From a virus, in IMG/VR virus record IMGVR_UViG_3300042090_002405, positions 1 through 64,000 of that record: a DNA stretch of 64,000 bases. One strand, 5' to 3'. Of this stretch, positions 45,126 to 63,043 are shown piece by piece (position 1 is the first letter of the stretch; each line of letters starts with the position of its first letter). Below the pieces are notes generated by a model. It had not been told where the DNA came from, did no database searches, and worked only from the letters and a program-made list of their open reading frames with translations. A program made the position numbers and the translations under genes.

Positions 45126-45775
45126 CCCCCGGGCGTGTTCGTCGCGTAGAACTCATGCCCTCCCGAGTGCATGACGTGCCCTGGCCCGCCACACCAAAGC
45201 ATCACGCGACCGCCGAGGGCTCGCCACCGCGCGCAGAAAGAGAGATCTTCCGAAAGAAGGCCGTCCCCCTCGGTCGGCCCCGTGTAGAGCAGTCCGAAGA
45301 GGTCGGCGCACTTCCACGGGTTGGGGTGGTCCGTGTAGATCCGCGCGGCTTTCGTCATCTCTTCGAGACATTTTCTCGAAGTGAGCGTGAAACCGAACCC
45401 TAACCCTTCTACCTCGAGGAGATCCCCTTCGCGTTTTTTGTCCGGCAGCGCTGCATGCGTAAACTTGATGGGGTAATCCTTTCCTACGTACGGTGCGCCG
45501 ACGAGGTCCTCTCTCGTATCGATCATCCTCTGTATGATTTCCGGTCTGTCTGCCCACTGGTCAGCATCGAGCCAAAGAACGTGCGTCATCTTCTCTAGGC
45601 GGGTGTCCTGAAGAATACGCGCGGCGAGACGGTTCCTCGCTCGTACGGGCTCGAACGATACCGCGGTCTTTGCGAAGCGGGGTGGCACTAGGTTCGCGCG
45701 GAAATCCGCGAACCCCAGTGTGACCAGCGCATTTTTCGGGTTCGTTCCTCGAACGGGCGTGGCGACGACGATCAC
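45122..45775 (-). CDS. Glycosyltransferase-like protein, GT-A fold
   Basis: IVVATP, ARNRL, WLDAD (DxD), GFGFTL, SEDLSFC. Confidence 0.85.
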   Translation of the reverse strand: MIVVATPVRGTNPKNALVTLGFADFRANLVPPRFAKTAVSFEPVRARNRLAARILQDTRLEKMTHVLWLDADQWADRPEIIQRMIDTREDLVGAPYVGKDYPIKFTHAALPDKKREGDLLEVEGLGFGFTLTSRKCLEEMTKAARIYTDHPNPWKCADLFGLLYTGPTEGDGLLSEDLSFCARWRALGGRVMLWCGGPGHVMHSGGHEFYATNTPGG

Positions 45776-45782
45776 GGCGCGG

Positions 45783-47177
45783 TCACGGCGCGGCGGTTGT
45801 ACCGCCGACGTAGAAGGGTGAACCGCCCACGAGCACCTCGAAATAGTGCGTGGGCGCTGTCCCGGTACCGCCGATAGTCTGCCCGGAGAAGTTGACGAGG
45901 CCGCCCGACGTCGCCGCCAACACTAGGTTGCTTCCGCTTGCCGCTGCGAGCTCCAAGATACCGCTCGTCGCGAAGATAGATGCTGTTCCTCCGGCTGACG
46001 CCAAGAAGTATTGACCGCTGCTCGCGTTGAGCTCGAGTTGCCCGGTTGTCTCTAGCGTCGCTACTCCACTCGCCGCCGTGATGAAAACGGTTCCAGTGTC
46101 CGGGGTGAGTGTGATGTTTGTCGAAGACGTCTCGAGCGTCATGCCCCCCGCGCCCGTCGCATCGAGAACTACCGTAGAGCCCGTCAGATGTGCTGCGCCG
46201 GCCGCCGCGAGAAGCAGTGTTGCGTTCGCACCATTGCCCTCCAGCATGAGGTCACTCGACGACGTGAGCGTCTGCGCGCCACTTGTGCCGAGCGTCGTTA
46301 CATCCGTGGATGGGGCCAGAAGGATTCCGCCGCCTGAAGCGGAGATCTCTACAGACAGAGCTGCGTCAATGTCGATGTTGCCGCCCGACGACGTGATCGT
46401 GAGCAGAGCGCCGCCCGTGAGCGTCTCGTTGCCACCTGTGCCGAAAGTCGTCGTGTTGTTGGAGGGGGCGATCGTGATGCCGCCCCCCGCGGTCGAGATG
46501 TCTAGACCGCTGCTTCCGATGATTCCGGGGCCGCCGTTGATGGTGACGGCGCCGTTCGAAAATGTTGTGTTGCCGCCCCCTGGGTTGACCGCGATCGATC
46601 CGGAATTCGTTTCGATCGTGATCTGCGCGCCCCCTAGGGGGGACGACGTGAAAACTGTAAGCGTGTCGTTATCGTTGTTGCCAAGAGTGGCGCTTCCTCC
46701 GCCGAAGCTGTTGCCACCGTTGATCCACGCGTTGGCAGCACCTGCGCCGGTTGCGCCCTGAGGGCCGGTCGCCCCTGTCGTGCCTACTCCCGTAGCACCG
46801 GCCGCGCCCTGCACGCCAGTTGCGCCCTGTACGCCGGTTGCGCCCGTCGCGCCGCCCCCCGGGCCGGTCGGCCCTTGTAGCCCCGTCGCGCCGGTCGACC
46901 CCGCCCCTGTGGCACCCGTCACTCCCGTTGCGCCCTGCACGCCGGTTGCCCCGGCAACACCCGTCGCTCCCGTGGCCCCCGAGCCGGGCCCCGTTGCTCC
47001 CTGGACGCCCGTGGCGCCGGTCGCCCCTGCTCCCGTCGCACCCTGTACCCCGGTAGCACCCGGCGGGCCCGCAACGCCCGTCGCACCCGTTGCGCCTCCG
47101 CCGGCCCCTCCGCCGCTGCTGGGAGGGCTTTCGTAGGTGTTGGGCGACTTATTTTTGATCCCTGCGATAGACCCCAT
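45783..47177 (-). CDS. Collagen-like fibre protein with KN(K/R)SPxTY N-terminal motif
   Basis: About 120 aa of G-X-Y (mostly GAT) triplets followed by a beta-rich region. Confidence 0.85.
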
Positions 47178-47205
47178 GGAAGAAACTCCGCGTTGGCTGT
47201 GACGG

Positions 47206-49164
47206 TTAGCGGACCGGAGGCGGTGCCGGGAACGCCGGGTGCGTCACTACCGGAGTCTCCATAGGCGTCGCTGGGTACCTTTCAGGATCGAGCTTCGGCG
47301 GTCGAAGGGCGCGCTCGATCGGATGGTCCAAGAGGAAGCTCGGGACATCCGCCGATTTGATCGTGGGGCCAAGTGGCTGAAGCCCCGGGACGGGATCGCT
47401 TACTCCGACGGGCCCTTGCGGGTAAGGCCCGTACGCTGCGCCCGAAGGCTGGGCACCTCCGCCGTCGAAAAAGTGCCCATGCCTGTGCCCGTGTCCGTAG
47501 TGGGCCGCCCACTGCCGGAGACGATTCCACTTGTCCGATCCGTGCACCGGGGGCCGAGGGCGACCCACGATCGCCTCGAGCCGATGCGCGTGCACGAGGG
47601 GGGCGCCGGGCACCTCGTGGCTCACTCCGGCGAGGGCGGTACGCGCGATGGGCTCCGGGATACCTAGCTTTTTCGCGAGGTCTATGGAGGAGAGCCCCGC
47701 GAGGGCTGGTTGCGATACGAGCGCCGCGGCGGCCTGGTGGGCCAGATCTGCGGCGTTCGCTGGGAGATTTTGTTTCACGTCACGGATGGCGGAGGAAAGG
47801 AGATCATTCGTCTGCGCGCCGAGGGCGTTGAGCACTTTTCCGACGGGGCCGCCGCTAGCCGCGGGGGGAAGGAGCTGGTGGGCGGCGGCGTAACCCTTCT
47901 TCTGGAGGCCTTGTGCTGTCGAGAGCGCCAACCCCGTGTCGAAGGCATGCGAGGAGGCCTGATCGAGCCCCTGCTTCGCAGTCGCGATCTGGGCCAAGAC
48001 GGGACCGGCTGCCCCCTGCGCGGCTTGCGTGAGCTGGTTACCGATGGCGGCGCCTTGCTGGAGCGCTTGCTGGGCCGCCGGCCCCGCGGCTTGGCCGATG
48101 ACCGCCCCAGCGGCGCCCAAAACATCCTGAGGAAGAGGCTTGCCCTCGGCGAGGTTTGCTGCCGCCGTGAGGCCGGAGGTGGCTTCGGGAGGAACGCCTG
48201 CGACCTGAGAGGCGTATTTGGCCTTGTCGCTGAGCCACTGCGTCACTTGCTTCTTTTGATCGAGAATGGCTTGGCCGATGTTCTTGCCGTGGAGCGCTTC
48301 GTCGGTCGCGCCGAGAACCAAAGTTTTTGCGAAGAAGGCGGGGTTGGCCTGCATGTAGCCAGACTTGTACGTCTGCGCGAGGGTGTTCAGGACCTTGTTC
48401 TTCGCGAGGTCCTTACCGATCTTCTTTCCGGCTCCGGTGTGGCCCGCCTCGACGGCGCCGGTGGCCAGGATCGCGGCGGCACCCGCCCCTGGAATAAACG
48501 CCACGGGGCCGACTTTCGTTGCGTCTTGCGCGATCTGCTTGAGGGCTTTCAGTGGCTGGAACTTGAACCCTACCCCTATCGATCCGCCAGCGCCGGAGAC
48601 ACCCGGCGTTCCGGTTCTGCCACTTTCGAGCTTCGTGGCGCGCGCCTGAAGCACGCTCGCCGCCGCGGGGTAGCCAGGCAAGAGTAGTGTCGCAAACGAC
48701 CGTAGCTTCGTCGGATCGGTCTCTTGGTGCGCCGCCGTAAGGACCGCGCTCTCGAGATCCTTCGGCAGGTTCGCGTCGAGGACGGGTTTACTAGAAGCAA
48801 CGATCAGATTCGACGGACCGCTCACGCCGATTTGGAACCCGATCGCCGCTCGGCCGCCCCTAGAGATACGCTCGTGCATGGGCCGAGCGTACCACGACCT
48901 ACTCGACCACCATCCTGAGAAAATGAGGGGTTCGTGAGCCCGTCCCGGAGAAGTCGGATGCGCACCGCCGTCTTCCCCCGCCTGGTGTCCCGGCGAGCCA
49001 TACGTCGGATGCGGTCTCGACGATCTCACTCTGCCGGGGGTACTTCTCTCGTAGGGCTCATGGAGGACGGTCTCCGTGAGTCGGCTCGCCGAGAGCCCGA
49101 TCGGCTTGGCTGCCCTGTGGTGGGGCGCCAGGCCGTTCGCGTTTCGGCGGTGGTGAGAGCCCAT
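47206..49164 (-). CDS. Large Ala/Gly/Gln-rich helical protein, putative virion/membrane protein
   Basis: Start directly after the transglycosylase stop (TAGATG); amphipathic helices. Confidence 0.65.
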
Positions 49165-49707
49165 CTAGTTTTGTGCGTACGGATGCTCGCGCCAGTAAGT
49201 CATCGCGCGGCCCATCCTCCGCGCAGATCGGCGCTCGGCGCGCGGCGTGTTCCACGCGAGCCCGTCGGTGTACTCGGCAAGCCACGTACGAGGGTCCGAT
49301 CCGCGACAAATTCGAAAACTTTCTTGCACCATTTCGATCGCTACGCCTGATGCCCCCAGCATGCCCGAGCACGTACGGTCGCGCGACCGTACGGTCTGAA
49401 AGAGACCCCAGGATTTGTTTGAGTCGCCGCCCTTCTTGCACATGGTGACGTCGTCACGAAAGTGACTTTCGTCGGCCGCGATCGCGACGAGGAGCAAACC
49501 CGTCTTTGCCCGCGCCGCGATGGGATCTCGGTCGGCGAACACCGGCTGCACGTACGGCTGGGAGACGGCGAAGGCGATGTCCCGCGCGATGGCCTCGTAG
49601 CGCGCTTCGGTCACTTCTTCGTTCTCGGTCCACCGATGCTCCTCTACGGGAACGAACGTGTGCATCGCGGCAAGAAGCCAGAGTGTGAGGTGTAGGATGT
49701 TCGGCAT
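49165..49707 (-). CDS. Lytic transglycosylase / lysozyme-like protein
   Basis: AIAADESHF (catalytic Glu) and SWGLFQ; hydrophobic N-terminus. Confidence 0.7.
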   Translation of the reverse strand: MPNILHLTLWLLAAMHTFVPVEEHRWTENEEVTEARYEAIARDIAFAVSQPYVQPVFADRDPIAARAKTGLLLVAIAADESHFRDDVTMCKKGGDSNKSWGLFQTVRSRDRTCSGMLGASGVAIEMVQESFRICRGSDPRTWLAEYTDGLAWNTPRAERRSARRMGRAMTYWREHPYAQN

Positions 49708-49750
49708 GACCGGCGCTTCTAGCGCGGCAGAGACCGAAGGCCAACCCGTT

Positions 49751-49948
49751 TCATTCACGGGGCGGCGGTCGCGAGCGCTTCTTCCTTCGCAGGATTGCTT
49801 CGACGAGAAGAGTGCGCACGGCATCTGATCGCGAGACGCTATGAGTTTTCTGGGCTCGTTGCATCTCCTCCGCAATCTCATCGATTTCCTTCATGAGATC
49901 GCGTCCAATACGCAGGCCCAGATGTACACCCGTGTCTTCGTGGCTCAT
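49751..49948 (-). CDS. RHH-like regulator
   Basis: LGLRIGRDLMKEIDEIA...SRSDAVRTLL. Confidence 0.75.
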   Translation of the reverse strand: MSHEDTGVHLGLRIGRDLMKEIDEIAEEMQRAQKTHSVSRSDAVRTLLVEAILRRKKRSRPPPRE

Positions 49949-49950
49949 AC

Positions 49951-49996
49951 CAATATTGTTGCACAAGCTTGCACAATGTCAAACAGCATCTAGTAT
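49951..49996. promoter_or_regulatory. Overlapping divergent promoters with TTGCACAA direct repeats
   Basis: ttgcacaa at 49959 and 49969; minus TTGACA...CAATAT; plus TTGCAC-N16-TAGTAT. Confidence 0.6.
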
Positions 49997-50022
49997 GAGC
50001 GTCGGAGGCGGGACACGAAAAC

Positions 50023-51189
50023 ATGAAAACCCTTCTTTGCGCGACGATGACGGTGTTTGCGGTGGCGACAACGGGTTGTATGGCAGCATCATCGCCATCG
50101 CCATCTCCTGTAGAGGAGGCCACAGGAACGACCGAAGAGGCCGCCACGACGACATGCACGAACGACTCGCAGTGCTCTGGCACCACGCCGTTCTGCACTG
50201 GATTGTCCCTCGCGTTGAACGCGAGCAGCACGACGCAGACCATCAACGGAGAGTCCGTCGCCGCGGGCAACTTCGCCGAGTACATGCCGCAGACGGTCGG
50301 GGAGTGCACGGGATGGTCCACGACTAATTCGCGTGCGTCGCAAGTACAGGGATCCTGCGCAGCGGGGCAGATCTGTGTGAACCTGAATGGCGGAGCTCAA
50401 GGGTCCTGCTACACGACGTGCACGGGATCAGGGCAGGGCACGTGCTCGGCGGGTTTGATCTGCGATTCGAACACGAACGTGTGCTCTACGAACGCGTCGG
50501 CGTGTGCTTCTGGGCTCGCGGTTTTCGGAAGCACTCCGCTTACCGTGACGTCCAAGGCGACCTACTCGGGTGGCACGGTCACCTACGGACAAGAGATTGG
50601 TGGGTCTGCGATTCCCTCGGCGGGGCACTGGGTGCCTGAGGTGTGGGCAACAACCCCGTCTTGGTCGACCAAAATCAAGGTCAACTTCAACATGCAAGGC
50701 ATCTGCACGTGGATCTCGAACAGTGACACGCAAGCGACTTGCACTGCGAGTGACGAGTCTTGGTACGCGACCAACGGCGTCGACGTGTGTTCGTACTACA
50801 CGACGGGTGCTGCCGAGGTCTTCTGCATGGAGTCCGACGTGTTCGGGGAGACGGGCGAGCTCGTCGAGTACAGAGCCCTCACTACGACGACGCCCTTCGG
50901 CGTCACGCAGTCAGCGCTGACTGCCGTGAGCCCGCCCGCTAACTTCACGCTTCCCGCCCGAGGAACCGTTCCTCCCGGTGTGGAGGGTGTAACGGGCTCG
51001 AGCGGGACGACGTGGCAGACACTCGAGGGCCCCGCTGGCACTTCGGGCGGCTATGCCGGATACGGCGGCTATGGCGGCTATGGCGGGGCCGGCGGCTACA
51101 GTGGATATGGTGGTTACGGTATCTACGGCAGCTACGGCGGATACGGCGGGGACTGCGCCTACGGCGGTTGCGGCGGCTTCGGCGACTGA
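50023..51189 (+). CDS. Cys-rich lipoprotein with Gly/Tyr repeat tail
   Basis: Signal peptide ending TTGC; many Cys; (GGY)n C-terminus. Confidence 0.8.
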   Translation: MKTLLCATMTVFAVATTGCMAASSPSPSPVEEATGTTEEAATTTCTNDSQCSGTTPFCTGLSLALNASSTTQTINGESVAAGNFAEYMPQTVGECTGWSTTNSRASQVQGSCAAGQICVNLNGGAQGSCYTTCTGSGQGTCSAGLICDSNTNVCSTNASACASGLAVFGSTPLTVTSKATYSGGTVTYGQEIGGSAIPSAGHWVPEVWATTPSWSTKIKVNFNMQGICTWISNSDTQATCTASDESWYATNGVDVCSYYTTGAAEVFCMESDVFGETGELVEYRALTTTTPFGVTQSALTAVSPPANFTLPARGTVPPGVEGVTGSSGTTWQTLEGPAGTSGGYAGYGGYGGYGGAGGYSGYGGYGIYGSYGGYGGDCAYGGCGGFGD

Positions 51190-51199
51190 TCCTGAAGTC

Positions 51200-51451
51200 C
51201 TATTTGCAGGGGTGCCCGTCCGTACCCGTCGTCGGGTGCCCCTTGCAGGCGGGACGGCCTGGCCACCACGTCCCGGGTTTCGTGGGGGCAGGTTTGGAAG
51301 CGGGTTTGCCGTTCACGTACTTCGGCAGTCCGGGGCCGCAGTGCGCACAGAACTGGGTTGTCTTGGTAGCCGGTCTCTTCTTGGCCGCCTCGGCGTTACC
51401 GACGGCGGCTACTGCGATAGCGACCGTGAGGGCTAGGATGATAGTTCGCAT
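51200..51451 (-). CDS. Small secreted basic Cys/Pro protein
   Basis: Signal peptide with AEA cleavage motif; AGGAAGAAG purine-rich RBS. Confidence 0.65.
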   Translation of the reverse strand: MRTIILALTVAIAVAAVGNAEAAKKRPATKTTQFCAHCGPGLPKYVNGKPASKPAPTKPGTWWPGRPACKGHPTTGTDGHPCK

Positions 51452-51466
51452 TGAATTCTTCCTTCC

Positions 51467-54400
51467 TCACGGGGCCGACGAGTTGAACGTTGCCGTGAAG
51501 ACTTGCGGGTAAATGCCCGGGGCAGTTTGGCATGTGCCTCCCGTGCAAACGTTTGAGGCACAATCAGCATTGTGCACGCACGTGATGCTCTGTCCGACGT
51601 TGGGGACGTTTTGGGTCTGGCAGAGGCCGTTGATGCAAGCGCCAACACCACCAGTTCCTGAGATAGGCGGACAGTCGGTCGAGAGCTCGCAAGTGGATCC
51701 CGTAATGTTGGCCTGGAGTGGATCTAAACCGTTACGGTTATCGGCCCACGTCGTTACCCATTTGCCCCCGCCAACGCCTACTAGTCCGAAGTCATAATCG
51801 CCGATCGTTGTGTTGTATGTCAGGACGCGTTCTGGGGCGGGTGTCTGCGAGCCCGAGCTGATCGTGGTAGTTCCGTGCGGACAAGATCCGCCCGTGCACG
51901 GGGCAACACCGACCTGAAATCCAAATCCGACGATTTGATACTCAAAATCTTGAGTTTGATTTCCGTAATTACACGAGGCCTGACCTGCGCCAGGAAATGG
52001 GGCCGACGCACCGCCAGAGCAGAAACCACCAACGCATTGACTGGTCGGTCCATTGTAGGCGCAGTCTGCGTTAGAGCCGCACGCGCACACTTCAGCGGGC
52101 GATGAACTGGTGGGGGGAACATCTACGCAGTTTGCGCAACTTCCGTTAGGCCCATTGCAGCCGGCGGTGCAATCGTTGTAGCCGAGCGTGGTATTATACG
52201 TACAGCCGATTCCGAATCCTAATCCTGTTGGGATTATGCAATCCACATTGATGCCCAATAGCCCGGTAGCAGGCGGCGTTCCGTTGTTGGTGGTGGGGAT
52301 TTGGGTGCGATACCCGTAGCCCGTGCACTCGTTGAGCAACACGTTGTTGGCTGCTGTGCCGTACCCCTGCGCTAGAACGCACTGCGGGTAGCCGGCGTCG
52401 GGAGCGATCGGGTCTTGGCCAACTCCGGGGGTGAACGGGGCTGTCGGGAGTGCCGTGCCCGCATCGGTGGGGAAATTGACCCTGACTGTCTGGTGAAATG
52501 TCACGGCGGCGTAAATGTTGCTCCCACCGCTGCCTTGTGTGATTGCGATGTTCGATCCGTACTGATTGCCGGAGATCTCTGCGATACCAGATGTGGCCCC
52601 GTAGCCCGTATCGTACGTCGGAACGACGAGCGCTCCTCCGTATGCAGCAACCCCTGCTGTGTAGTTCGTGTTCAGGACTTGTACCGGTTTCGTCGTGGAT
52701 GGGGATATCATTGACGCCCATTCGTCCGCAACCTGCCCCGCTGTAGCGGCAGGCCATTGCCCCGCGACAGCGCGAAGACCACGGTATTGCGTCGCGGCGG
52801 CCTGGTATTGCGCTTGGTTGCACCCAGGTTGTCCGAGCACGCATGTGGACGTGAAAACCGGACGCTCGTACACGAACACGAATTCGCCGGGCGCATTTCC
52901 GGGAGCACCGTTAACGAGCGACGAAACAGAACCGGCCCAATACGGATTGACCGCCATTGACACGCGATACCAATGATTGCCGTTACCGCGAGGAGTAGGC
53001 CCAAGTCCTTCGAACAGGGATCCCTGCAGGGATACCTGCGGGACGAAACCAGACCCTGCCCCGTTTGCTCCGCTGTTGTTGTTCGGATTGCTCGTAAGGA
53101 CGAGGGGGTAAGCAGGATTGCCAAGAGTATCCAAGTCCTTGCCCAGAACGTACGTAGTCCAATCGCTAGCGTATCCGTGATACGGGTTGTCTGAAACGGA
53201 CAGATACCAAACGAGTCCGACGTTTGTAACCTGATCTCTGGTAGACGAAATCGATCCGGGGGCCAGGAACGGCGCATTGCCCGGCAATTGATTGCTCGGC
53301 GCTGCACCGCCATTCCAAACCACAGGATATTGCGCCCCCACGTAGATGAGGTAGATGCGGGGCGCACACGGCTGGGTTCCGTTGCCACATGTAGCCGGCT
53401 TATGGCGCACTGCCATATTCATTTGCCATGGCTGTTGCACCGGCAGGCAATTGCCGTATGTGCCGTTGCCGAGGTTACAGCTATCGAGATTCAAGAAGTG
53501 CAGCCGGTTAGCGTCTCGAGAGCTATTGTAACCGTTGATCGGCGCAACAGACGGGTCTGCGTCCGTCGCAATCGGCGTTTGGTGCACCCCATCGACGGCG
53601 AACTGCCCAGACGGCAAGCATGCGTCCTGTACGAGCCCACACTGCCCTGTCACGGTGTTCGGTGTCGTCACTGCCGAACCCAATGCCAACGTGCCGTTGC
53701 CTCCTCCGGTGCATCCAGTAAAGCTGGTGGCGGTCATACCGGTGCACGTGACGGTTTGTTCGCCCGGAATCCCGGGAGGAGAAGTGTTGACAAGGATACT
53801 TGCGGGCGCTGCGGGGAAGCCGGCGGTCGACGTGACATTGATCGTTGCTTGGGGAAGTCTCTTGCCCGCAGACGCCGCCGCGATTGCCGTAGTGGCGGTG
53901 CCGATACATTGCACGCCCGCACAGCAACGGGTCGCGTTGCTTTTTTGGGACGCTACGCACGTAGATTGCGACGCACCGAATGCGGACTGAACGTACCCAG
54001 CAAAGCTCGGTTGACAACTACCGTTTTGGTCTCGAGATGCAGAGGTCCATTCGTTCCAACCGTTTTGCTTGGTTGCAGAGACGCCCGCTATAGGACCGCA
54101 GTTCGCCGGATCTGGGACAGGAAAGGCGTAAGAGTTGTTGCAGGGTACGCCGTTCAAGCAATGCGGGGGGACGGGTGTAAAATGAAAACTGCCCGTCGGA
54201 TCGACCGGAACCTCTGCGAGATATGGGCCTGCCAACGGGTCAGGTAGCCCTGGATTCCGGATCGAGAACGTGCCCGTATTTTGATATTGGATGGGTTGTT
54301 GTCCTGCGTTTGCAGCATCCCACACCACCTCGAGATTCGCTGGCTGGTTGGGCGTCGGATTGCACCCAGACGTTCCTATGACACACGTGTTACCGTCGAC

Positions 54401-55870
54401 GCGCACCATCGGCGCGTCTGCGATTCCAGCTCCGTAAGTCACGTCGTCCATGAACGATCCCATGGAAACGGTGGCGGAGTTCGTAAAGCTCTTACCACCG
54501 TTTGTGCTGACGGTCAGTGTGATGTCCTGGATGCTGCCGCCAGTGGCAAAATTGGATGCTAAAGTTGCCCAGTTATAGAACCCACCGCCGGCAGCGCTGG
54601 CATTTAGCGTGCCATTCTGGGTTGTCCCGCATACGCCAGTCCCACATGCGTAGTTTTGCGGCCCCGGTGCAGAGATCCCGCACGTTCCGTTAGATATCCC
54701 CGGGCACACTAGACCTTGAGGGCAATCGGCATTTGTGTTGCAACTGAAATTCAAGGATGGAGGCGGGAAACCGGAGCCCAACAACGCAGTTTGCATGTTC
54801 CCGCAAATCGAATTGCATCCACCTGCGAACAGTCCCGATCCGCTACTGAGGCTATCATCGCAGAACTGCTCCGCCGCGGTCCCGTCTTTGCCGTGCGGGC
54901 ATGTCGCATCGGCGGCGGCTTGTGTAGATCCGGTACAGACACAGAAACCGGGGGATGCCGATGTGCATGTCGAAGGGGTACAAGGATCGGTGCCGTCTGG
55001 AGTGCAAAGCATCGTTCCGGGACAATCGGATTGCACGAGACATGTCGGCTCGCCGTAGAGAGATCCGTTTGAGGCACACGTCGGCAGCGTCGGTCCTATG
55101 AGCGGTGCTGCTCCCGCCGGAGGTGGAAACGTTTGGGCCTTCGTCTGTACGTAGCTCGCGATGACAGCAAGGTCGTTGCCGGTATTGCCACTACCCCCCT
55201 TCGTGTTGTTTGCGTACGGGACTGCTGTGATCGTGCCGTTGAACGCAAAATCCCCAAACGCCGCGTTGCTCCCGTGGTCTCCACCAGCACCCCACTTCTG
55301 CGAGCAAGCATTTGCGCCTGCCGTGATTCCGTTGGCAGGACAAGCCCACTGGTAAAAATTTGGGTTGTTGGCCGCTACCGTGCTCGTAGTGGGCCCAGAT
55401 CCGACACTGACCGTAGAGCTCCAGTTCGAGAACGTGGGCCCCGAAGCCGTCAGTGACGCCTCCGAAAAATGCAGTATCTGCGACCCTGAAGCGTTTGGAT
55501 CGCTCACGATCCTCGTCGCGAAGTTATTGACGTACTGCTGACCCCCGCCCTTCATATTCAGGAGCGTTCCGTTGATATCTGCGCCCGAGATGAGCCCCTT
55601 CACGCAACTCGTCGGCGGGGCGCATCCGTTCTGCCCTGCGCCTGTTCCTGGGGGCAGCGTCGGGTCGCACGTAATCCACGAACCGGAGCAGTGGCTGGGG
55701 GTTGTCAGCCACGTATTGCCTGACACCCCCGTGATGAGCGGCCCCGAAGCGCCGAACATCCCCGGCGCGAGCCCCATTCGGTTTCCTGGGCCGGTGTTGC
55801 GACAACACGCCCACACCGCAGCGGCGATGACGAGAAAAGAAGCAGCTAGAGCGGCAATCTTGCGATTCAT
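51467..55870 (-). CDS. Very large Cys-rich secreted/lipoprotein with Asp-box (BNR)
   Basis: MNRKIAALAASFLVIAAAVWAC signal; STNGGKSF Asp-box; CxxxxDC repeats; TGATG-coupled to the upstream gene. Confidence 0.8.
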   Translation of the reverse strand: MNRKIAALAASFLVIAAAVWACCRNTGPGNRMGLAPGMFGASGPLITGVSGNTWLTTPSHCSGSWITCDPTLPPGTGAGQNGCAPPTSCVKGLISGADINGTLLNMKGGGQQYVNNFATRIVSDPNASGSQILHFSEASLTASGPTFSNWSSTVSVGSGPTTSTVAANNPNFYQWACPANGITAGANACSQKWGAGGDHGSNAAFGDFAFNGTITAVPYANNTKGGSGNTGNDLAVIASYVQTKAQTFPPPAGAAPLIGPTLPTCASNGSLYGEPTCLVQSDCPGTMLCTPDGTDPCTPSTCTSASPGFCVCTGSTQAAADATCPHGKDGTAAEQFCDDSLSSGSGLFAGGCNSICGNMQTALLGSGFPPPSLNFSCNTNADCPQGLVCPGISNGTCGISAPGPQNYACGTGVCGTTQNGTLNASAAGGGFYNWATLASNFATGGSIQDITLTVSTNGGKSFTNSATVSMGSFMDDVTYGAGIADAPMVRVDGNTCVIGTSGCNPTPNQPANLEVVWDAANAGQQPIQYQNTGTFSIRNPGLPDPLAGPYLAEVPVDPTGSFHFTPVPPHCLNGVPCNNSYAFPVPDPANCGPIAGVSATKQNGWNEWTSASRDQNGSCQPSFAGYVQSAFGASQSTCVASQKSNATRCCAGVQCIGTATTAIAAASAGKRLPQATINVTSTAGFPAAPASILVNTSPPGIPGEQTVTCTGMTATSFTGCTGGGNGTLALGSAVTTPNTVTGQCGLVQDACLPSGQFAVDGVHQTPIATDADPSVAPINGYNSSRDANRLHFLNLDSCNLGNGTYGNCLPVQQPWQMNMAVRHKPATCGNGTQPCAPRIYLIYVGAQYPVVWNGGAAPSNQLPGNAPFLAPGSISSTRDQVTNVGLVWYLSVSDNPYHGYASDWTTYVLGKDLDTLGNPAYPLVLTSNPNNNSGANGAGSGFVPQVSLQGSLFEGLGPTPRGNGNHWYRVSMAVNPYWAGSVSSLVNGAPGNAPGEFVFVYERPVFTSTCVLGQPGCNQAQYQAAATQYRGLRAVAGQWPAATAGQVADEWASMISPSTTKPVQVLNTNYTAGVAAYGGALVVPTYDTGYGATSGIAEISGNQYGSNIAITQGSGGSNIYAAVTFHQTVRVNFPTDAGTALPTAPFTPGVGQDPIAPDAGYPQCVLAQGYGTAANNVLLNECTGYGYRTQIPTTNNGTPPATGLLGINVDCIIPTGLGFGIGCTYNTTLGYNDCTAGCNGPNGSCANCVDVPPTSSSPAEVCACGSNADCAYNGPTSQCVGGFCSGGASAPFPGAGQASCNYGNQTQDFEYQIVGFGFQVGVAPCTGGSCPHGTTTISSGSQTPAPERVLTYNTTIGDYDFGLVGVGGGKWVTTWADNRNGLDPLQANITGSTCELSTDCPPISGTGGVGACINGLCQTQNVPNVGQSITCVHNADCASNVCTGGTCQTAPGIYPQVFTATFNSSAP

Positions 55871-57525
55871 CACGCGACCTCGGTGTAGCGGTTGACACAT
55901 GAAATGTGCAGCGTGACAGGCACAGCAGTGGCTGGCGCCTGTGAAATTTGAAAGAGCAATGTGCCCGTGAAGGTGCCATCATCGAGTGCCTGGAAAAGCC
56001 AGTTCCCCGTCGCCGGCTGCGCGCCCGCTGTTCCCGTCGTGGTCGTCACAGCGATCTGCCCTGGCGGTCCTGCGACGGGGAAGATGATGGGGCCCGAACC
56101 GGGCCACGAGCACGATACGGTCGTCTCGAAGGTCGCGAAATCGGCGTAGCTTGCGGAGGTGGCTGTGGTGCTCGTGGGGCCGCTCGTGAGTGCTGCGCCA
56201 TTGGCGAATGGAGCGGGGGTTGGCGTGCCGGTAAAAGTCAACGTTCCCACCGCGGCCGACGTCGGCGCGATCGTCGCAGAGTTCGTCCCATCCGTGACGA
56301 CATCCCCGGGCGCGAACGCCGGGCCCGTCACGGCGCCAATGCTGATCTCATTCTGCACCTGCCCCTGCGCGACGACGGATATATCGAGCAGATAGGCCTT
56401 CCCGGCCTGGAGCTGAAACGGCCCCGGGGTCGTCCCCGACGCCAGATTAGAGGCGGCGCCGGTGTTGGTGCCAAGAAACGGCTGATCCGAGAACTGTGCG
56501 TCGCCCGGGACCGAGATGGCCCCGCCCGCGAACGCGCGCTGCGTGCTCCGCGTCGCAACGGCCTGATAGCCAGCCGCTTCTGCCGCGTCTGCGCGCGCCT
56601 GGCACTCGATGCCCCGCGCAAACGCGGCGCCCATGTTGACGGAGATCGCTACGGACTGCCGGCCGAGCGCGACATCGCCCGGCGGAAGCCCTGAAACAGG
56701 GGGTGCGATAGAGCCGGCGATGCAGTTGAAGCCCGCGACGAAGGCGTAAGCCGAGTTGGCTTGACAGGAGCCGAATGCCACGCCCCACGAGCTCAGGACG
56801 GACGCTTGAGGGCCGTACGCGAATCCGCCGATTGCGGTCGGAGCAACAAAGCTGCCGTTGCCGCCTGCAAACGAGTTCTGCCCAGCCGCGATGTTCTGAT
56901 TCCCACCTGGCACATAGGCGCCCATGCCGGCGGCGATGTTTCCGATTCCGCCCCCCACACCCGATGCGTACCCCGTGGCGGAGTTCTTGAGGCCGCCGGC
57001 AACGGTTGCGTACGCGCCGACAGTAGGATCCAAGAAGATCCCGCTCGTAGCTGTCGCGGTAGCCCCCGACAACACCCCTTGGAGGGAATCGCCGCTGCTG
57101 ATGGTCCCGCCGGTCACCCCCGCAAGGGTCAGGACAGATCCGGTATCGCTCGCGACAACCGCACTGGCTCCGGAGGTTAGATCGTTGACCGATTCACCGA
57201 CCTGAAAGGTACCGGTAAGAAGATCGTAGCTGACAGTCGCGGCGCCGGCTTGGTTCTGGTCACCGCCCCCTATCGTCGTGTAGTTCGCCGTTGCGCCGGG
57301 GTTCACCCCCGATGTGTCATTGCCCGCAGAGAAGATCCCCGTGGCGTTCGGGTTGACGGCGCTGTTCGTCCCACCGTTGCTACGGTTAGACTGAATGTCG
57401 ACCGCCCCGGAGACGGTGTTGAAGACGAACGGGAGCAAGCCGATAACCCCCCCGCTGCCTACCGCCGGCGAAATCGGATAGGTGATCGGAGACTTGTTTT
57501 TTAGTCCAGCGACTACGGCAACCAT
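55870..57525 (-). CDS. Fibre/adhesin-like protein with KN(K/R)SPxTY motif
   Basis: GG..N.A.G..S.V YadA-head-like repeats; GGGAG RBS. Confidence 0.8.
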   Translation of the reverse strand: MVAVVAGLKNKSPITYPISPAVGSGGVIGLLPFVFNTVSGAVDIQSNRSNGGTNSAVNPNATGIFSAGNDTSGVNPGATANYTTIGGGDQNQAGAATVSYDLLTGTFQVGESVNDLTSGASAVVASDTGSVLTLAGVTGGTISSGDSLQGVLSGATATATSGIFLDPTVGAYATVAGGLKNSATGYASGVGGGIGNIAAGMGAYVPGGNQNIAAGQNSFAGGNGSFVAPTAIGGFAYGPQASVLSSWGVAFGSCQANSAYAFVAGFNCIAGSIAPPVSGLPPGDVALGRQSVAISVNMGAAFARGIECQARADAAEAAGYQAVATRSTQRAFAGGAISVPGDAQFSDQPFLGTNTGAASNLASGTTPGPFQLQAGKAYLLDISVVAQGQVQNEISIGAVTGPAFAPGDVVTDGTNSATIAPTSAAVGTLTFTGTPTPAPFANGAALTSGPTSTTATSASYADFATFETTVSCSWPGSGPIIFPVAGPPGQIAVTTTTGTAGAQPATGNWLFQALDDGTFTGTLLFQISQAPATAVPVTLHISCVNRYTEVA

Positions 57526-57553
57526 GTCTTATCTCCCTGTCCTATTTCCTATT

Positions 57554-59164
57554 TCAGTTGGCCAGATTGCAGAGACTACCGCCGCCCTCGACCCATAGGC
57601 ACCCCAGCGTGGCGCCCAAGTTGGAGTCGGCGTTAGCGGCGCTCGCAGTGATGTTGCACGTAAGCGTGGGTGATGCGACAGTAGGTACCCCCAGACATGC
57701 TTTGGTCTGACCGTTTAGGGTGATCCCGCCAGTCTCTAGAAACGTTGCGGCGGCCTCGCCAGCTCCGGACGGGTAAGTCACGTGGCCGTTCGATGTAACG
57801 CCTAGGGTCCCTGTGCCCCAAAGGAACGGCCCCAGAGTGGGAAACGAGTCGGAGCTGTTGAGGTTCAGCGAACCGTTTACGGTGAGGGTCGATCCGTCCA
57901 AGTACGCGGTGCCGAGGATCCCGCCGCTGACGTTGATGAGATTCCCGTGGCCCTGCGCGAAAATCACGTCGTTCGTAAATTGTCCATAGTTTGGCGTGAT
58001 GTTGTACGAGTTCCCGGTGCCAAAAAAGCCCGCTGAATAACAAGTGCCAGACGCCTGTAGGCCTGTGACAATAGACGTATTCGAAAGAGGGCCGCCATAC
58101 GACGGCAAGACGCCGCCGAGGATTGCCGAGTTGATGAATCCATTTCCTACGAGAGGGCCGGCGTTGGGCGTTGCCACGTAGACCGGATAGTTGCTCGTAC
58201 TCTCGACGAATTCGGTAGCGGCACCGATAGTAATCCCGGCGAAAACATTCGTCGTCGTCGGCGTACGCACGCCGATGTTGTAAAGAACGAGACCGTTCGC
58301 GAAGGTTGATGTGCTCTCGCCTTGCACTACGGCTCCGGCTGTGGCGATGTTGATTTGCGGCGTCGAGTTGATCGTGACGGTGTCCCCCGTCGTCCATACG
58401 TCTTGCTCTTGCGGATTCTCGCAGTTCTTGAGCTCCGGCGGGGATATTGAGATTGCGCTTGCCGTCTGGCTCATCAGCCACGTCGTGCCAGACACTAGCT
58501 TGTAGAGCCATCCTCTAGAGGCATGCGTTGAGTTGATGACGAGTAGCCCAGGTGAAAGAGAGCCCGCATCGGCACCAGCAAAGGTCACCTCGAGAAGCTG
58601 CGGCGTAGATCGGTTCTTTGCGGCCACGACCGTGATGGTGGTCGTCTGCACCGTAGTAAGGGCCCCTTCGAGAAGAACGCTTGCACCCGATTCGAGGAAG
58701 TACGGCCCCACGTACCATACGTCAGAGTCGCTCGTGTTCGAACTCATCGCCTTGATCGTCGTGTTCTGCCGGATGCGCGGGCTCATCGTGCCCCATCGCG
58801 CAACGATCTGCGTATACGAAAGGCAGGGGCCGTCGGCGATCCCGGGAATCCCCGACGTGCACGTCGACTGTCCGCACGTGACATTACCGTCGCTCGCGCA
58901 TCCGGAGGTATTGCTGGGATCGACGTACCATGCCGCCTGGCTCCAAGAGCTCGGGCACGTAGGTGCCCCGCCATCACCGGGAGCTGTCGAGCACAGAGGG
59001 GGAAAAACAACAGGGGGCGGCAGAGCGTTTGCCGCACCGAACGTCTGGCCATTCGCGCCGGCCGCAGGGGCAGTTTCGATGGCGGTACGTTGGCCGTAGA
59101 TGCTCACCACCAAGGCGAAGACAGCGCACCCCAGAACGAAAAACGAAAACTTCTTCGACATCAT
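57554..59164 (-). CDS. Signal-peptide-bearing beta-rich protein
   Basis: SKKFSFFVLGCAVFALVV; WYVDP...ASDGN...PC motif typical of beta-helix caps; ATGA-coupled. Confidence 0.75.
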   Translation of the reverse strand: MMSKKFSFFVLGCAVFALVVSIYGQRTAIETAPAAGANGQTFGAANALPPPVVFPPLCSTAPGDGGAPTCPSSWSQAAWYVDPSNTSGCASDGNVTCGQSTCTSGIPGIADGPCLSYTQIVARWGTMSPRIRQNTTIKAMSSNTSDSDVWYVGPYFLESGASVLLEGALTTVQTTTITVVAAKNRSTPQLLEVTFAGADAGSLSPGLLVINSTHASRGWLYKLVSGTTWLMSQTASAISISPPELKNCENPQEQDVWTTGDTVTINSTPQINIATAGAVVQGESTSTFANGLVLYNIGVRTPTTTNVFAGITIGAATEFVESTSNYPVYVATPNAGPLVGNGFINSAILGGVLPSYGGPLSNTSIVTGLQASGTCYSAGFFGTGNSYNITPNYGQFTNDVIFAQGHGNLINVSGGILGTAYLDGSTLTVNGSLNLNSSDSFPTLGPFLWGTGTLGVTSNGHVTYPSGAGEAAATFLETGGITLNGQTKACLGVPTVASPTLTCNITASAANADSNLGATLGCLWVEGGGSLCNLAN

Positions 59165-61617
59165 TGCAGTACCCACGCTGTGCCTGTGTAGTAGAGGGTC
59201 GCGCCCCCACCGGCGGGGATAGACGCGAGAGCGCCGGTGCCGGCATCGAGGACGGTCAACGTGTTTCCGGAGTCATCGGTCCGCGTGATCCGTAGTGTCT
59301 GCGCAGCAGGCCCGGAGTCGAGAAGCGTGATTGTCGTGTTCACCGCAAGGGACTTGACGGTGTACCAGTTGCCGCCTTGCGTGTAGCCGGCGGTCGCGCC
59401 CGCACCGGTGATCGACAAAGACACCGCACCGCCCGCGGGATTGTTGATTGCTGCGCCTGGGACAGGCCCTGCGAGGTAGCCGCCCACTACAACCACGACA
59501 ACGTTGGCCGAGTAGCTCCCGCCTTGAGCGATAAAGGTGAGCCACGATTGGCCGTCGAATGTGGCGACGGTGCCCGGCGCTCCTGACAGCGCAGTCGCCT
59601 CTTCGAAACGCGTTCGATAGAACGTGAACTGCGTCGCGACGAGGCTAGGCGAGTCGATCTGGCAATCGTCGTAGGTCTGCGTCGTGGTCGTCGTGATCGC
59701 GACGGTGTCCAAAACAGAGCATCCCGAGACGGCCTGGACGCTCCCACATGACAAGTTGGTCGAGACCCAATTCACGTCATTGGAGAGTCCTAGCTTCCAC
59801 GTGGGTGACGCGCCGGACGTGACGACGAGCTGGGTGTCGTTGTTCTCCACGAGGAGCGCAGAGAAGTTCGTTGCGCCGGAAACGTTCAAGGTGCTGTTGA
59901 GAAGCTCGCCGTCCTTGAGGAGGAGAGCGCTTTGGCACGAGCCCGGACCGTCAGTGACGGTCATCGCCATCTCGTTGATGGCCAGTGCTTCAAAAACGAG
60001 GAGCGCTTGCGAGGGGATAAACGCCGTGACGCCGTTGGCCCAATTGACCGTCAAGCCGGTCATCATCACGGGCCCCGTGAATGTCGGAGCCGCGGGGAAA
60101 TTGGTCGAAGTGATCTGGATCGATCGACATGGAGGAATCGTCCACGTTTGTGGATCTGGGTCCCACACGTCCGCCGCGGTAGGGGCTATCGATCCGACCT
60201 CGAACGTGGCCGCATCGTCAGCACTCGTCGGATCCCCTAGCGTCGCAAGCCACGCTTCGGGACTAGAGTACGGGGCGCTCTCGGTGCCGTTCTGAAAAGC
60301 CGCCGGCACGAGGGTATTGCCGTCGATCCAACGAAATCGCGCAAGAGGGACCGCGCCGCCGCCATCCGAAGACTGCCCAAAGATCTGAAGAACCCAATGG
60401 CCGCTTTCAAAATATACTACGACGCTCCCAGGCCCCGTCAGGGTGATAATCGTACCGCTGCCAGCATCTAGGATTTGGAGCTCAGCGCCCTCCGTATTGT
60501 CGGTGCGCGTAAAGCAGATCGTGTCTCCTGGATCGGCGGTGTCCGCCACCGTGATGGTGGTAACGCCCTCCGCAAGGGTTGGGATGGTGTACCAGTTGCC
60601 GCCCTGTTCGTATCCCGACGAAGCACCGGTGCCGATGATCGAAACGGTCACCGATTCCGTAATATTCGCGCCGGGTACTTGCCCCGCGAGAAAGCCGCCC
60701 GTGACAGCGACGATCGTAGAGCCGTACGTGCAATCCGCGTCTTGAAACGCCTTCCACGAGATGCCGTCGAACTCCGCGGTGGGCGCGGAGAGTACGCACG
60801 CTTGTGACCAACTCGTCTGGTTGAAAAAGCACTGCGCCCCCGCCGTTAGACCGGGCGCGCCGATAGACGCTCTCGTGTAGTTCTGGTTGCCGCTCGTCGT
60901 GATCGTACCGCTGTCAGAGACGATCGAATCCTCTGCCTGCAACCCCGCGCAGGTTAGGTTCGTAGAGCTCCATTGACTCCCCTCTTGAAGCGTGAGCGAC
61001 CACGTCGGAGTAGCGCTGGACGTTACTTGCAGCTGCGCTTGGGTGCCGCTGATGTCGAGAATCTCGAAAAGAGCCGCTCCTGTCACGTCGAGCGTGCCTT
61101 GCAGGTTGCTGCTACCGAAGATCAACGCAGATGGGGCGGATCCAGCCGCGTCCGTGATCGTCATCGTGAGGCCGGAAATGTTGGCGTTCTCGACGATGAA
61201 CGTGGCGATCGTGGGCACGAACGCCGCCGGGGCGTTGTTCCAATTGATTGTCAGTGGTGCGAACGACGGCGCCACCATGTTGAACGCCATGAGGATGACG
61301 TTTCGGCTACTGGGTACAGTCCACGTTTGCGGATTCGGACTCCACGCATCCGCTGCAGCCGGGGAGATGACGCCTAGCTCGGCTGTCGATGCGTCGTCGG
61401 TGCTCGTCGGTGCGCCCAGCGTGTTGAGCCATGCCTCGGGGCTTTGGTACGGCGTCCCGGGTGCGCCGTTCTGCATCGCAGGCGCGACGGTCGTGTACGC
61501 GTCGATCCATCGTAGCCGCTTCAGCGGAACGTCCGAGAAGGGACCGGAGCCGCCCATGCCCAGCGACCTCTCGTAGGTGAGAGGCGATCGATTCTTGATG
61601 CCGAGAATAGAGCCCAT
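59161..61617 (-). CDS. Spike-like protein with two tandem repeats of about 400 aa and KN(K/R)SPxTY motif
   Basis: VPLKRLRWID...YEQGGNWY...WVLQ and VPLARFRWID...YTQGGNWY...WVLQ. Confidence 0.85.
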   Translation of the reverse strand: MGSILGIKNRSPLTYERSLGMGGSGPFSDVPLKRLRWIDAYTTVAPAMQNGAPGTPYQSPEAWLNTLGAPTSTDDASTAELGVISPAAADAWSPNPQTWTVPSSRNVILMAFNMVAPSFAPLTINWNNAPAAFVPTIATFIVENANISGLTMTITDAAGSAPSALIFGSSNLQGTLDVTGAALFEILDISGTQAQLQVTSSATPTWSLTLQEGSQWSSTNLTCAGLQAEDSIVSDSGTITTSGNQNYTRASIGAPGLTAGAQCFFNQTSWSQACVLSAPTAEFDGISWKAFQDADCTYGSTIVAVTGGFLAGQVPGANITESVTVSIIGTGASSGYEQGGNWYTIPTLAEGVTTITVADTADPGDTICFTRTDNTEGAELQILDAGSGTIITLTGPGSVVVYFESGHWVLQIFGQSSDGGGAVPLARFRWIDGNTLVPAAFQNGTESAPYSSPEAWLATLGDPTSADDAATFEVGSIAPTAADVWDPDPQTWTIPPCRSIQITSTNFPAAPTFTGPVMMTGLTVNWANGVTAFIPSQALLVFEALAINEMAMTVTDGPGSCQSALLLKDGELLNSTLNVSGATNFSALLVENNDTQLVVTSGASPTWKLGLSNDVNWVSTNLSCGSVQAVSGCSVLDTVAITTTTTQTYDDCQIDSPSLVATQFTFYRTRFEEATALSGAPGTVATFDGQSWLTFIAQGGSYSANVVVVVVGGYLAGPVPGAAINNPAGGAVSLSITGAGATAGYTQGGNWYTVKSLAVNTTITLLDSGPAAQTLRITRTDDSGNTLTVLDAGTGALASIPAGGGATLYYTGTAWVLQ

Positions 61618-61644
61618 GGATCCCTCGTTCGCCCGCGCTTGGCC

Positions 61645-62148
61645 TCAGACGCTCACGACTTCGACGGTAAGGCGCGCCGACGGCGAAACGGAAGGCGGTT
61701 TACCCAAAACCGTCGCGCTCGTCGCTCCGTCCTGACAAATCGCGTCGAGTTGCACCGTGTAACTACCTGTCGAGGTCACCGGCACTTCGAAGACACGCGT
61801 GACGGTCTGGCTCGGCATGATAATCGTCGAGTTTTCAACACCGTCCTGAATAACCGGAGGTCCGGGGGGTTGAGATATGAATATGCCCGTGAAGATCGTC
61901 CCATTTCCAGCGATGGAGGTGTAATTGACCGTCGCATGGACGATGATCTTCTGCCCTGCGGCCGCAAGGATCCCAGTGATCGTCACGAGGGGCGTATCGA
62001 CGGAGTCGCTAACCGTGATCGTGTCCGCCCCGTTGTCCCCGTAGTACGTCGCGACGAGTCCCGGCGGTACCGCCATCCCCGAGCCCACGGCGGGAGATTG
62101 CTCATAGGTGCTCGGGGAGCGATTTTTGGTGCCTGTCAGGTAGCCCAT
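61645..62148 (-). CDS. Small beta-sandwich protein with KN(K/R)SPxTY motif
   Basis: AAGGA RBS before MGYLTGTKNRSPSTY; GSYTVQL...LTVEVV. Confidence 0.75.
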   Translation of the reverse strand: MGYLTGTKNRSPSTYEQSPAVGSGMAVPPGLVATYYGDNGADTITVSDSVDTPLVTITGILAAAGQKIIVHATVNYTSIAGNGTIFTGIFISQPPGPPVIQDGVENSTIIMPSQTVTRVFEVPVTSTGSYTVQLDAICQDGATSATVLGKPPSVSPSARLTVEVVSV

Positions 62149-62279: not shown

Positions 62280-62756
62280 TTATCCCGGGTACGTAAGAAC
62301 GACTCCAACGTCCGTGACATCTGCTCCCGCAACGGTCCCGGGGTTGTTGGAGATCGGGCTCAAGAGACTTGCGCCTAGTGGGAAAGTCAGCACGGTGACG
62401 TTGTACGGAGAGCCGTTCGGCAACGGGTCAGAAAACGTGAACGGGCCGTTTGCAGTGAGTGTGAGATCGTCTCCGCCGTTGATCTGCAAAACGAGCGGAC
62501 CTGTCCCGGTGTCGTATCCCGACAACGTGCCCCCCACGGTGAACAGGTCAGCCGCCACTACGGAGGCGCGTAGCGAGATCGCTTGGTCTTTCGGCCGCGA
62601 TGCGTTCGACCATCCACTGTACTCCGTGTCGTAAACCGAGCCTGTGGCGACGAAGTTCGCGAATTCGCGGTACACTGCCTCGTCCATGAGCTGGCGCGAG
62701 CAGCCGTTTTCGCTAGCGCCTCCCTTCGCGCGAAGCGTGGTCAACTTCCTTCTCAT
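62280..62756 (-). CDS. Putative structural protein with Ig-like C-terminal domain
   Basis: TVGGTLSG...LVLQINGGDDLTLTANGPFTF...YNVTV; GAGGAG RBS. Confidence 0.7.
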   Translation of the reverse strand: MRRKLTTLRAKGGASENGCSRQLMDEAVYREFANFVATGSVYDTEYSGWSNASRPKDQAISLRASVVAADLFTVGGTLSGYDTGTGPLVLQINGGDDLTLTANGPFTFSDPLPNGSPYNVTVLTFPLGASLLSPISNNPGTVAGADVTDVGVVLTYPG

Positions 62757-63043
62757 GACACTTTCTCCTCTTCGCCCGGGTCTCCGAGCAGCTTGAGCAA
62801 AACCGCATCTGCTAGCAGCGCAAGAAAGCTCGTCGCCGCCCCTACGACCGCTGCGTCCCCTATGCGGCCGAATCCTACGGTGACAATCCCGCTCGCCCCC
62901 GCCGCTGCCCCAACCCATGTACCGGTGCACTGACTGCACTCGAAGAGGGCCGGGAAAAGCCGTCGGATCGGACGCGCGATCGTGCTGCGCACGACGAGGA
63001 GCGTCGCGCCGATCAGCGCGGAGAGGAGGAGGATCGAGGTCAT
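62753..63043 (-). CDS. Membrane protein, DUF1360-like
   Basis: TM helices around CSQCTGTW. Confidence 0.7.
   Translation of the reverse strand: MTSILLLSALIGATLLVVRSTIARPIRRLFPALFECSQCTGTWVGAAAGASGIVTVGFGRIGDAAVVGAATSFLALLADAVLLKLLGDPGEEEKVS

Follow-up and report, generated by a model that had tools for sequence, protein, structure and literature searches.

A short N-terminal peptide shared by unrelated fibre-like proteins of an uncultured virus lineage: a putative docking tag for exchangeable receptor-binding proteins

The window analysed here is a 64,000-nucleotide stretch of DNA that comprises bases 1-64000 of the 81,287-bp IMG/VR record IMGVR_UViG_3300042090_002405, the genome of an uncultured virus (referred to below as G000; position numbers beyond 64000 are genome coordinates). 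Four proteins encoded in this window, which are otherwise unrelated, begin with the same peptide of approximately 16 residues. This N-terminal tag was found to belong to a family that is carried by several proteins in each related virus examined and is linked to a single family of capsid-like proteins, and it probably serves to dock exchangeable receptor-binding proteins on the virion. The four tagged genes of G000 are the following, with scores from a hidden Markov model (HMM) of the tag where available:

45783..47177, minus strand: collagen-like fibre protein of 464 amino acids (aa); tag at residues 1-16 (47130-47177), 25.9 bits
55870..57525, minus strand: 551-aa protein; tag at residues 1-17 (57475-57525), with one extra residue before the Gly, 21.8 bits
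59161..61617, minus strand: 818-aa protein; tag at residues 1-16 (61570-61617)
61645..62148, minus strand: 167-aa protein; tag at residues 1-16 (62101-62148), 30.7 bits

Translation of these open reading frames (ORFs) from the ATG codons at 47177, 57525, 61617 and 62148 reproduces the four N-termini quoted in the first-pass annotation of this DNA, each beginning M-x-x-h-h-G-[ILT]-K-N-[KR]-S-P-x-T-Y. The Gly of the motif is residue 6 in three of them and residue 7 in the 551-aa protein, as had been noted, and each start is preceded, 8-13 nt upstream, by a Shine-Dalgarno-like GGAG, GAGG or AAGGA. A degenerate DNA pattern for K-N-[KR]-S-P has exactly four matches in the 81,287 bp, all of them in the tagged genes, while the reversed-pattern control has 0, and a six-frame regular-expression search of the genome revealed no further copies. 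The four tag copies differ synonymously (e.g. GGG/GGA/GGC, AAG/CGA/CGC and TCG/TCT/TCC), and the DNA upstream of the four genes is not conserved. Together, these two observations indicate selection on the peptide and rule out recent gene conversion as well as selection on an RNA or DNA element, which upholds the earlier view, based on the differing codons, that conservation is at the protein level.

The bodies behind the tag were described previously as unrelated, and indeed BLASTP detects no similarity among the four. Behind the tag, the 464-aa protein has a Gly/Ser linker, then G-X-Y repeats up to approximately residue 150 (a collagen stretch of some 130 residues) and finally a C-terminal domain without a known family. 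This protein gives a weak Pfam Collagen match and matches to PHROG tail-fibre families and to collagen chains in the PDB (to E 6e-42), in agreement with its designation as a collagen fibre; the best PDB match of the collagen-like region is to chains named 'spindlefibril/axialfibril' (8zxl, 9ius). The duplicated domain assigned to the 818-aa protein was likewise recovered: its body is a tandem duplication of a module of approximately 400 aa, both halves of which align to single-copy tagged proteins of 403-418 aa in four of nine whole-genome relatives (G002, G006, G022 and G025). Two other labels could not be confirmed. The 551-aa body, called YadA-head-like, has no Pfam or PHROG family and only a non-significant UspA1 match (E 0.33), and the 167-aa body, called a small beta sandwich, has no family match in Pfam or PHROG. 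The true start of the latter protein is the ATG at 62148 and not the upstream GTG at 62181. It was also considered as an orthologue of a conserved tagged family of approximately 170 aa in the relatives, and this was rejected, as hhalign aligns the tag only.

Relatives were gathered by means of the 449-aa capsid-like protein of G000 (described below), which yielded 29 IMG/VR loci at 64-78% identity on contigs of up to 125 kb. The exact G000 motif, searched as a DNA pattern, is absent from 25 relatives. Non-conservation was rejected as the cause, since the relatives carry variants of the tag: each has several ORFs starting M-x-x-[IVL]-[IVA]-G-R-G-R-Y-A-[RT]-E-T-Y-P, with M-x-x-I-I-G-R-G-R-Y-A-R-E-T-Y-P as the commonest form. 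The family-wide pattern is M-x-x-h-h-G-x(8)-[TS]-Y-P, the middle usually being GRGRYARE, and the intermediates G-R-G-R-S-P-E-T-Y-P and K-R-[KR]-S-P-E-x-Y join the common form to that of G000. Judged from these variants, the G000 form (type B) is a lineage variant of the family-wide tag; the consensus originally proposed thus holds within G000, whereas the tag of the family at large differs from it.

With an HMM of the first 22 residues, G000 and eight relatives, nine whole genomes in all, were searched in six-frame translation. The search produced approximately 44 matches of 12-43 bits, every one of which begins at an ATG, compared with a maximum of 11.5 bits for the reversed-sequence control. 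A tenth genome contributed 11 more tags, two of them at GTG starts, and no internal tag (0) occurs in the ten whole genomes. Complete genomes hold 3-11 tagged ORFs, G000 having four. Among 75 unique tags from approximately 30 related IMG/VR viruses (whole genomes plus the flanking loci of further relatives), Tyr15 is present in 75/75, Gly6 in 74/75, Pro16 in 65/75 and Thr14 in 57/75. Furthermore, a strict DNA pattern for G-R-G-R-Y-A-x-E-T-Y-P has 12 matches in 2.9 million IMG/VR contigs, and all of these contigs carry the 449-aa gene; a word-indexed protein search with residues 1-40 of a tagged protein returned two candidates only. Hence, the question raised in the first-pass annotation, namely whether the motif would prove to be multi-copy, N-terminal and linked to one capsid family, receives a positive answer on all three counts from the relatives and from IMG/VR.

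The conservation of the tag contrasts with the diversity of what follows it. After removal of the tag, the 44 tagged proteins of the nine genomes fall into 25 clusters without BLASTP links, and only two body families recur widely: the protein of approximately 170 aa (8/9 genomes) and the module of approximately 400 aa (5/9 genomes). A Pfam census of the bodies assigned five proteins to Collagen and one each to a pectate-lyase-like beta-helix, Beta_helix, Ice_binding, CBM_5_12 and an endosialidase N-terminal extension; many tagged proteins also contain GPT-type collagen repeats. Predicted domains of these kinds are common parts of the proteins with which phages bind receptors or degrade glycans. 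The tag itself is basic, with a Lys+Arg content of 18% as against 3% in the bodies, and the linker behind it is Gly/Ser/Pro-rich or collagen-like, with 18% hydrophobic residues at positions 17-32.

Two classes of tag can be distinguished. In G000 all four tagged proteins bear type B, G-[ILT]-K-N-[KR]-S-P-x-T-Y, and none bears type A, the class with I-I-G-R-G. One relative of 116 kb holds both: its eight type A tags head mainly long collagen-like proteins, and its three type B tags (A-G-[IL]-K-x-[RQ]-S-P-E-[TA]-Y) head proteins of 147-163 aa.

On this evidence we favour, with moderate confidence, the interpretation that the tag is a virion-docking peptide for swappable receptor-binding proteins. 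A fibre or spike would then be built of the tag, a flexible Gly/Ser/Pro or collagen-like linker and a variable body that binds receptors or degrades glycans. The tag, basic and probably extended and with its Gly6, Thr/Ser14, Tyr15 and usually Pro16, would insert in one conserved site of the particle, and the existence of such a site would allow new bodies, gained by recombination behind the tag, to be displayed with the capsid unchanged. Either the socket would read only the positions common to types A and B, or the two classes would go to different sites. The plug-in docking system proposed in the first-pass annotation is therefore upheld as regards its multi-copy, N-terminal and capsid-linked peptide and its bodies, which resemble receptor-binding proteins; the socket was not found, and we infer both that the tag binds and what it binds.

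Several observations weigh against this interpretation. No binding partner has been identified for the tag, and no genes were found that are specific to type-B genomes or that track type A or type B. Removal of the tag is conceivable, given that the virus has a gene for a putative Cys protease in the vicinity. As for the architecture of the virion, the jelly-roll matches of a model of the 449-aa protein reach only Z 5.0-5.8 and are mixed with unrelated beta-sandwiches. Finally, distant relatives (approximately 30% identity in the capsid-like protein) have no tag or other shared fibre N-terminus within 10 kb of the capsid gene, which implies that the capsid module works without the tag; on present evidence, only a single clade within a broader group of viruses carries the tag. 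As regards the socket, the conserved 200-aa and 321/333-aa proteins encoded beside the capsid-like gene are candidates for a penton-type role. Co-folding of the 321-aa capsid-module protein (two copies, 78 alignment rows) with a 36-residue tag (41 rows) gave an interaction prediction score from aligned errors (ipSAE) of 0.00 in a single job without controls, which speaks neither for nor against binding. The N-terminal 'RGRYE' of the 333-aa protein was considered as a mimic of the tag and rejected, being not conserved in relatives.

The co-occurrence of both classes in one genome leads to the question as to whether they constitute an address code, in which the type A (GRGRYARETYP) and type B (G-[IL]-K-x-[KR]-S-P-x-[TA]-Y) classes would each send proteins to their own site on a large, tailless bacterial virus particle of a new kind. 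Those sites might be vertices as opposed to facets, or the outer shell as opposed to a membrane, and G000 would have moved all of its fibres to the type B address. We regard this elaboration as unlikely.

It is distinctly unlikely that the tag is instead a cleavable assembly or maturation signal, recognised by a viral protease or scaffold and then removed, although there is something to be said for it. The tag is short, strictly N-terminal and common to unrelated proteins, much as the internal proteins of phage T4 bear an N-terminal capsid-targeting sequence that is cut off by the prohead protease, and the I-I-G-R-G of type A tags resembles the sites of the adenovirus protease, (M/I/L)-X-G-X-G. 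In addition, the capsid module encodes a conserved 220-aa protein with weak similarity to transglutaminase-like Cys proteases. This assignment is, however, below the Pfam cut-off, the G-R-G element is missing from the type B tags of G000, and Gly6 and Tyr15, the only invariant residues, form no known cleavage motif. In contrast to the T4 case, no cleavage motif is common to types A and B, and the bodies, with their collagen, beta-helix or carbohydrate-binding module (CBM) domains, resemble external receptor-binding proteins rather than internal cargo.

Recognition of the tag by a modifying enzyme or assembly chaperone, for example a glycosyltransferase acting on the adjacent collagen-like or Thr-rich linker, appears very improbable. 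Glycosyltransferase genes are located directly downstream of the collagen-like tagged gene of G000, GPT-type repeats are frequent, and the invariant Thr/Ser-Tyr could be a modification site; yet collagen and Thr-rich regions are absent from many tagged proteins, and the glycosyltransferase at 43319-44530 is matched in 1/8 relatives, in a clade whose members all carry the tag. A signal for export (put forward earlier, alongside modification, as an alternative to docking) or for targeting to a membrane would also be N-terminal and basic, and we give it hardly any credence because the tag lacks a hydrophobic core: there is none of at least 10 residues behind the basic residues, as Sec and Tat signals would have, there is a Gly/Ser/Pro-rich linker in its place and no twin-arginine consensus, and the ordinary signal-peptide-like N-termini of two neighbouring proteins (1477 and 540 aa) suggest that standard signals are used where needed. 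Equally remote is a functionless remnant of common descent or of repeated recombination at gene starts, for while fibre genes are mosaic and recombine often, and some adjacent tagged genes are recent duplicates, the 75 tag versions in approximately 30 genomes retain their invariant positions amid synonymous variation even as the bodies are replaced.

The docking interpretation has established precedents: phage and adenovirus fibres are attached to the particle by their conserved N-termini (PMC8156859, PMC6872550, PMC13352976). In adenovirus, the conserved N-terminal tail of the fibre binds in the cleft between two penton base monomers (PMC8156859). As in adenovirus, a short and conserved N-terminal peptide, here probably extended as well, precedes the shaft and variable head of a trimeric fibre, and it includes an invariant aromatic residue with Pro as its usual next neighbour (T-Y-P here, V-Y-P-Y in adenovirus); the particle here is plausibly tailless and of jelly-roll type. 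The comparison with the adenovirus peptide FNPVYPY, drawn in the first-pass annotation, is apt as regards the Tyr and the usual Pro behind it; the sequences are otherwise unlike, without homology, and the relationship remains one of analogy. Adenovirus moreover has one fibre gene (rarely two) as against 3-11 tagged genes here, its penton base is known whereas only candidates for an equivalent emerged here, and the present host appears to be bacterial.

Another precedent is provided by phages K1-5 and SP6 and many Klebsiella phages, in which secondary receptor-binding proteins bear group-specific N-terminal peptides, down to seven residues in length, that bind a T4gp10-like domain (PMC6872550), an interaction that has been tested experimentally (PMC13352976). 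In K1E, K1-5 and SP6, and in the Klebsiella phages KP32, KP34, Menlow and PhiK64-1, the docking peptides comprise 7 to 11 residues or more. As here, several depolymerases or fibres per genome share only a short, group-specific N-terminal peptide, their bodies are swapped horizontally, and the display of multiple receptor-binding proteins would be the purpose. Those phages are, however, tailed and possess a known T4gp10-like socket, while no Pfam or PHROG match to a T4gp10-like branching domain or adaptor was obtained among the proteins scanned here (approximately 50 larger ORFs). Furthermore, the Klebsiella-phage peptides are reported to be without positive charge (PMC6872550), whereas the peptide described here is basic and unrelated to them. 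The docking principle is thus known already, and it is the peptide and the virus lineage that are new; the present system differs from the known ones in its peptide sequence, in the number of carrier proteins and in its apparently non-tailed lineage.

Two further systems resemble the present one in layout. Bacteriophage PRD1 (15 kb, tailless, membrane-containing) has two spikes, P5 and P2, which are held on the penton protein P31 at the vertex through their N-terminal parts, and in P5 a Gly-rich collagen-like shaft connects the N-terminal attachment part with a knob. It thereby offers a tailless bacterial virus with two different spikes on one vertex, although attachment there takes an entire N-terminal domain, compared with 16 residues here, and no homology was detected. 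BclA-type proteins of the Bacillus exosporium have an N-terminal targeting motif, which is cleaved on attachment, a collagen-like region and a C-terminal globular domain. BclA is a weak PDB match of the 464-aa protein, and the resemblance extends to the three-part layout and to a short N-terminal address on several collagen-like proteins; the differences are that BclA is cellular, attaches to a spore layer and uses another motif that is cleaved.

If the tag is a universal plug, an abundant and previously undescribed lineage of wetland and soil bacterial viruses would alter its host range through the exchange of bodies joined to a 16-residue peptide, and up to 11 different binding proteins could be present on one particle. 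As a simple sequence handle, the tag can also be used to find the receptor-binding proteins that these genomes encode, and it is a candidate minimal peptide for the display of foreign proteins on such particles. The identity of the socket would, in turn, reveal the vertex architecture of a virus type without a cultured member.

The capsid-like gene belongs to a conserved late module that encodes the Cys-protease-like protein, a 701-aa protein, the beta-rich 449-, 200- and 333-aa proteins and several small membrane proteins. Three genes of this region are placed as follows:

genome 67789-69138, minus strand: 449-aa capsid-like protein, just outside the window
genome 69241-71346 (L005:6241-8346), minus strand: conserved 701-aa protein, directly upstream of the capsid-like gene
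genome 65873-67084 (L005:2873-4084), minus strand: GIY-YIG homing endonuclease, inserted between the 200-aa and 333-aa genes

Sequence searches with the 449-aa protein found nothing in the PDB and no match among INPHARED phages, and a language-model atlas gave only sub-threshold similarity to capsid clusters of CRESS viruses. An AlphaFold2 model based on a 76-row alignment from an exhaustive search reached a predicted local distance difference test score (pLDDT) of 85.6 and a predicted template modelling score (pTM) of 0.84, compared with a pLDDT of 31 when only 24 close homologues were used. The best VIA-align matches, in the Z range given above, include single and double jelly-roll proteins (SPV1, HHIV-2, HCIV-1, PRD1 P3, PBCV-1, FLiP and P23-77 VP16) interspersed with CBM, discoidin and other unrelated beta-sandwiches; the best Foldseek match is papillomavirus L1 (E 3e-3), and no HK97-fold protein is among the listed fold-search matches. 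The model thus predicts a confident fold without a strong structural neighbour. The 449-aa family is large, with 187 clusters at 50% identity among 1.84 billion representative proteins, and the 200-aa and 333-aa genes are represented by 521 and 591 protein clusters, respectively, at 90% identity in public metagenomes, all of them unnamed.

The 701-aa protein contains approximately 150 residues of Arg-rich RRRVRA-type repeats, followed by hydrophobic segments and a His/Pro-rich tail, and may be a genome-condensing core protein. The GIY-YIG gene has no match in the eight whole relatives compared. In the distant relatives the order protease, core protein, 449-aa, 200-aa and 333-aa protein is retained. 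In one of these tag-less viruses (L088:4024-6415, plus strand), at least three adjacent paralogues, situated upstream of its protease and capsid genes, share an N-terminal membrane anchor, MKK-S/T-TK-x-x-LW-x-GG...

The genome of G000 has a G+C content of 62% and is 98% complete according to CheckV; no end repeats were found in its 81,287 bp. The genomes of its relatives range from approximately 67 to 125 kb, and their contigs include several with direct terminal repeats, one with inverted repeats and one flagged as a provirus. Near-identical DNA is present in wetland metagenomes from four studies, and the record may itself derive from one of these. Exact short contigs from the region also occur in one wetland metatranscriptome library, where carry-over of DNA is possible, such that transcription is not demonstrated. 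The replication and integration genes include a family A DNA polymerase, a D5-type primase-helicase, SNF2 and superfamily 1 (SF1) helicases and two tyrosine recombinases, of which the following were mapped:

14289-17939, minus strand: 1216-aa protein in which a uracil-DNA glycosylase domain and a 3'-5' exonuclease are fused to the family A DNA polymerase, interrupted by an intein containing an HNH endonuclease
8949-10058, minus strand: first tyrosine recombinase
36355-37644, plus strand: second tyrosine recombinase

Pfam and PHROGs searches of approximately 50 of the larger ORFs detected no terminase, portal, HK97-type capsid or tail genes, an absence that in sequence searches is no proof. Nor was a Walker-A protein that could be a packaging ATPase of the FtsK/HerA type found among the genes conserved across relatives, the ATPases of the genome belonging to the replication module. 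A tailless particle of jelly-roll-type proteins is plausible, and we infer both of these features in the docking interpretation given above. Bacterial-type ribosome-binding sites and a weak match to a peptidoglycan-binding domain point to a bacterial host. A scan of species genomes revealed a contig of a Polyangiaceae metagenome-assembled genome in which an integrase fragment adjoins a 15-residue remnant of the capsid-like gene, as well as a 5.8-kb contig binned as Candidatus (Ca.) Binatia; naming a host from either was rejected, as the matches are too weak. The two tyrosine recombinases, the provirus-flagged relative and the Polyangiaceae integrase fragment hint at a temperate lifestyle.

The genes that adjoin or interrupt the tagged cluster are listed below:

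62280..63228, minus strand: three small, translationally coupled genes for a 62-aa protein, a 96-aa membrane protein and a 158-aa protein
43319..45775, minus strand: group-1 glycosyltransferase (403 aa) and a 217-aa protein, both directly downstream of the collagen-like 464-aa gene, the 217-aa protein being the closer of the two
51467-55900, minus strand: 1477-aa protein, untagged, inside the cluster
57554-59176, minus strand: 540-aa protein, untagged, inside the cluster

The three small genes have stop/start overlaps at 63040-63043 and 62753-62756. They are kept in 7-8 of the 8 relatives tested, where they are interleaved with tagged genes, and their products are candidate partners of the tagged proteins. 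The glycosyltransferase matches Pfam Glyco_trans_1_4 (2e-12) and the 217-aa protein matches Anp1 below the cut-off (0.004); the two may glycosylate the 464-aa fibre. The 1477- and 540-aa proteins have hydrophobic N-termini and no Pfam or PHROG family match.

A second N-terminal motif, approximately G-x-R-x-[VA]-x-G-F-x-[IV]-G, was observed within the first 20 residues of a different set of proteins, several of which have membrane segments:

47206-48879, minus strand: 557-aa protein with the second motif
63779, minus strand: protein with the second motif
genome 77895, plus strand: protein with the second motif
genome 78335, plus strand: protein with the second motif

The 557-aa protein of this set lies between tagged genes and probably begins at the ATG at 48879, not at 49164.

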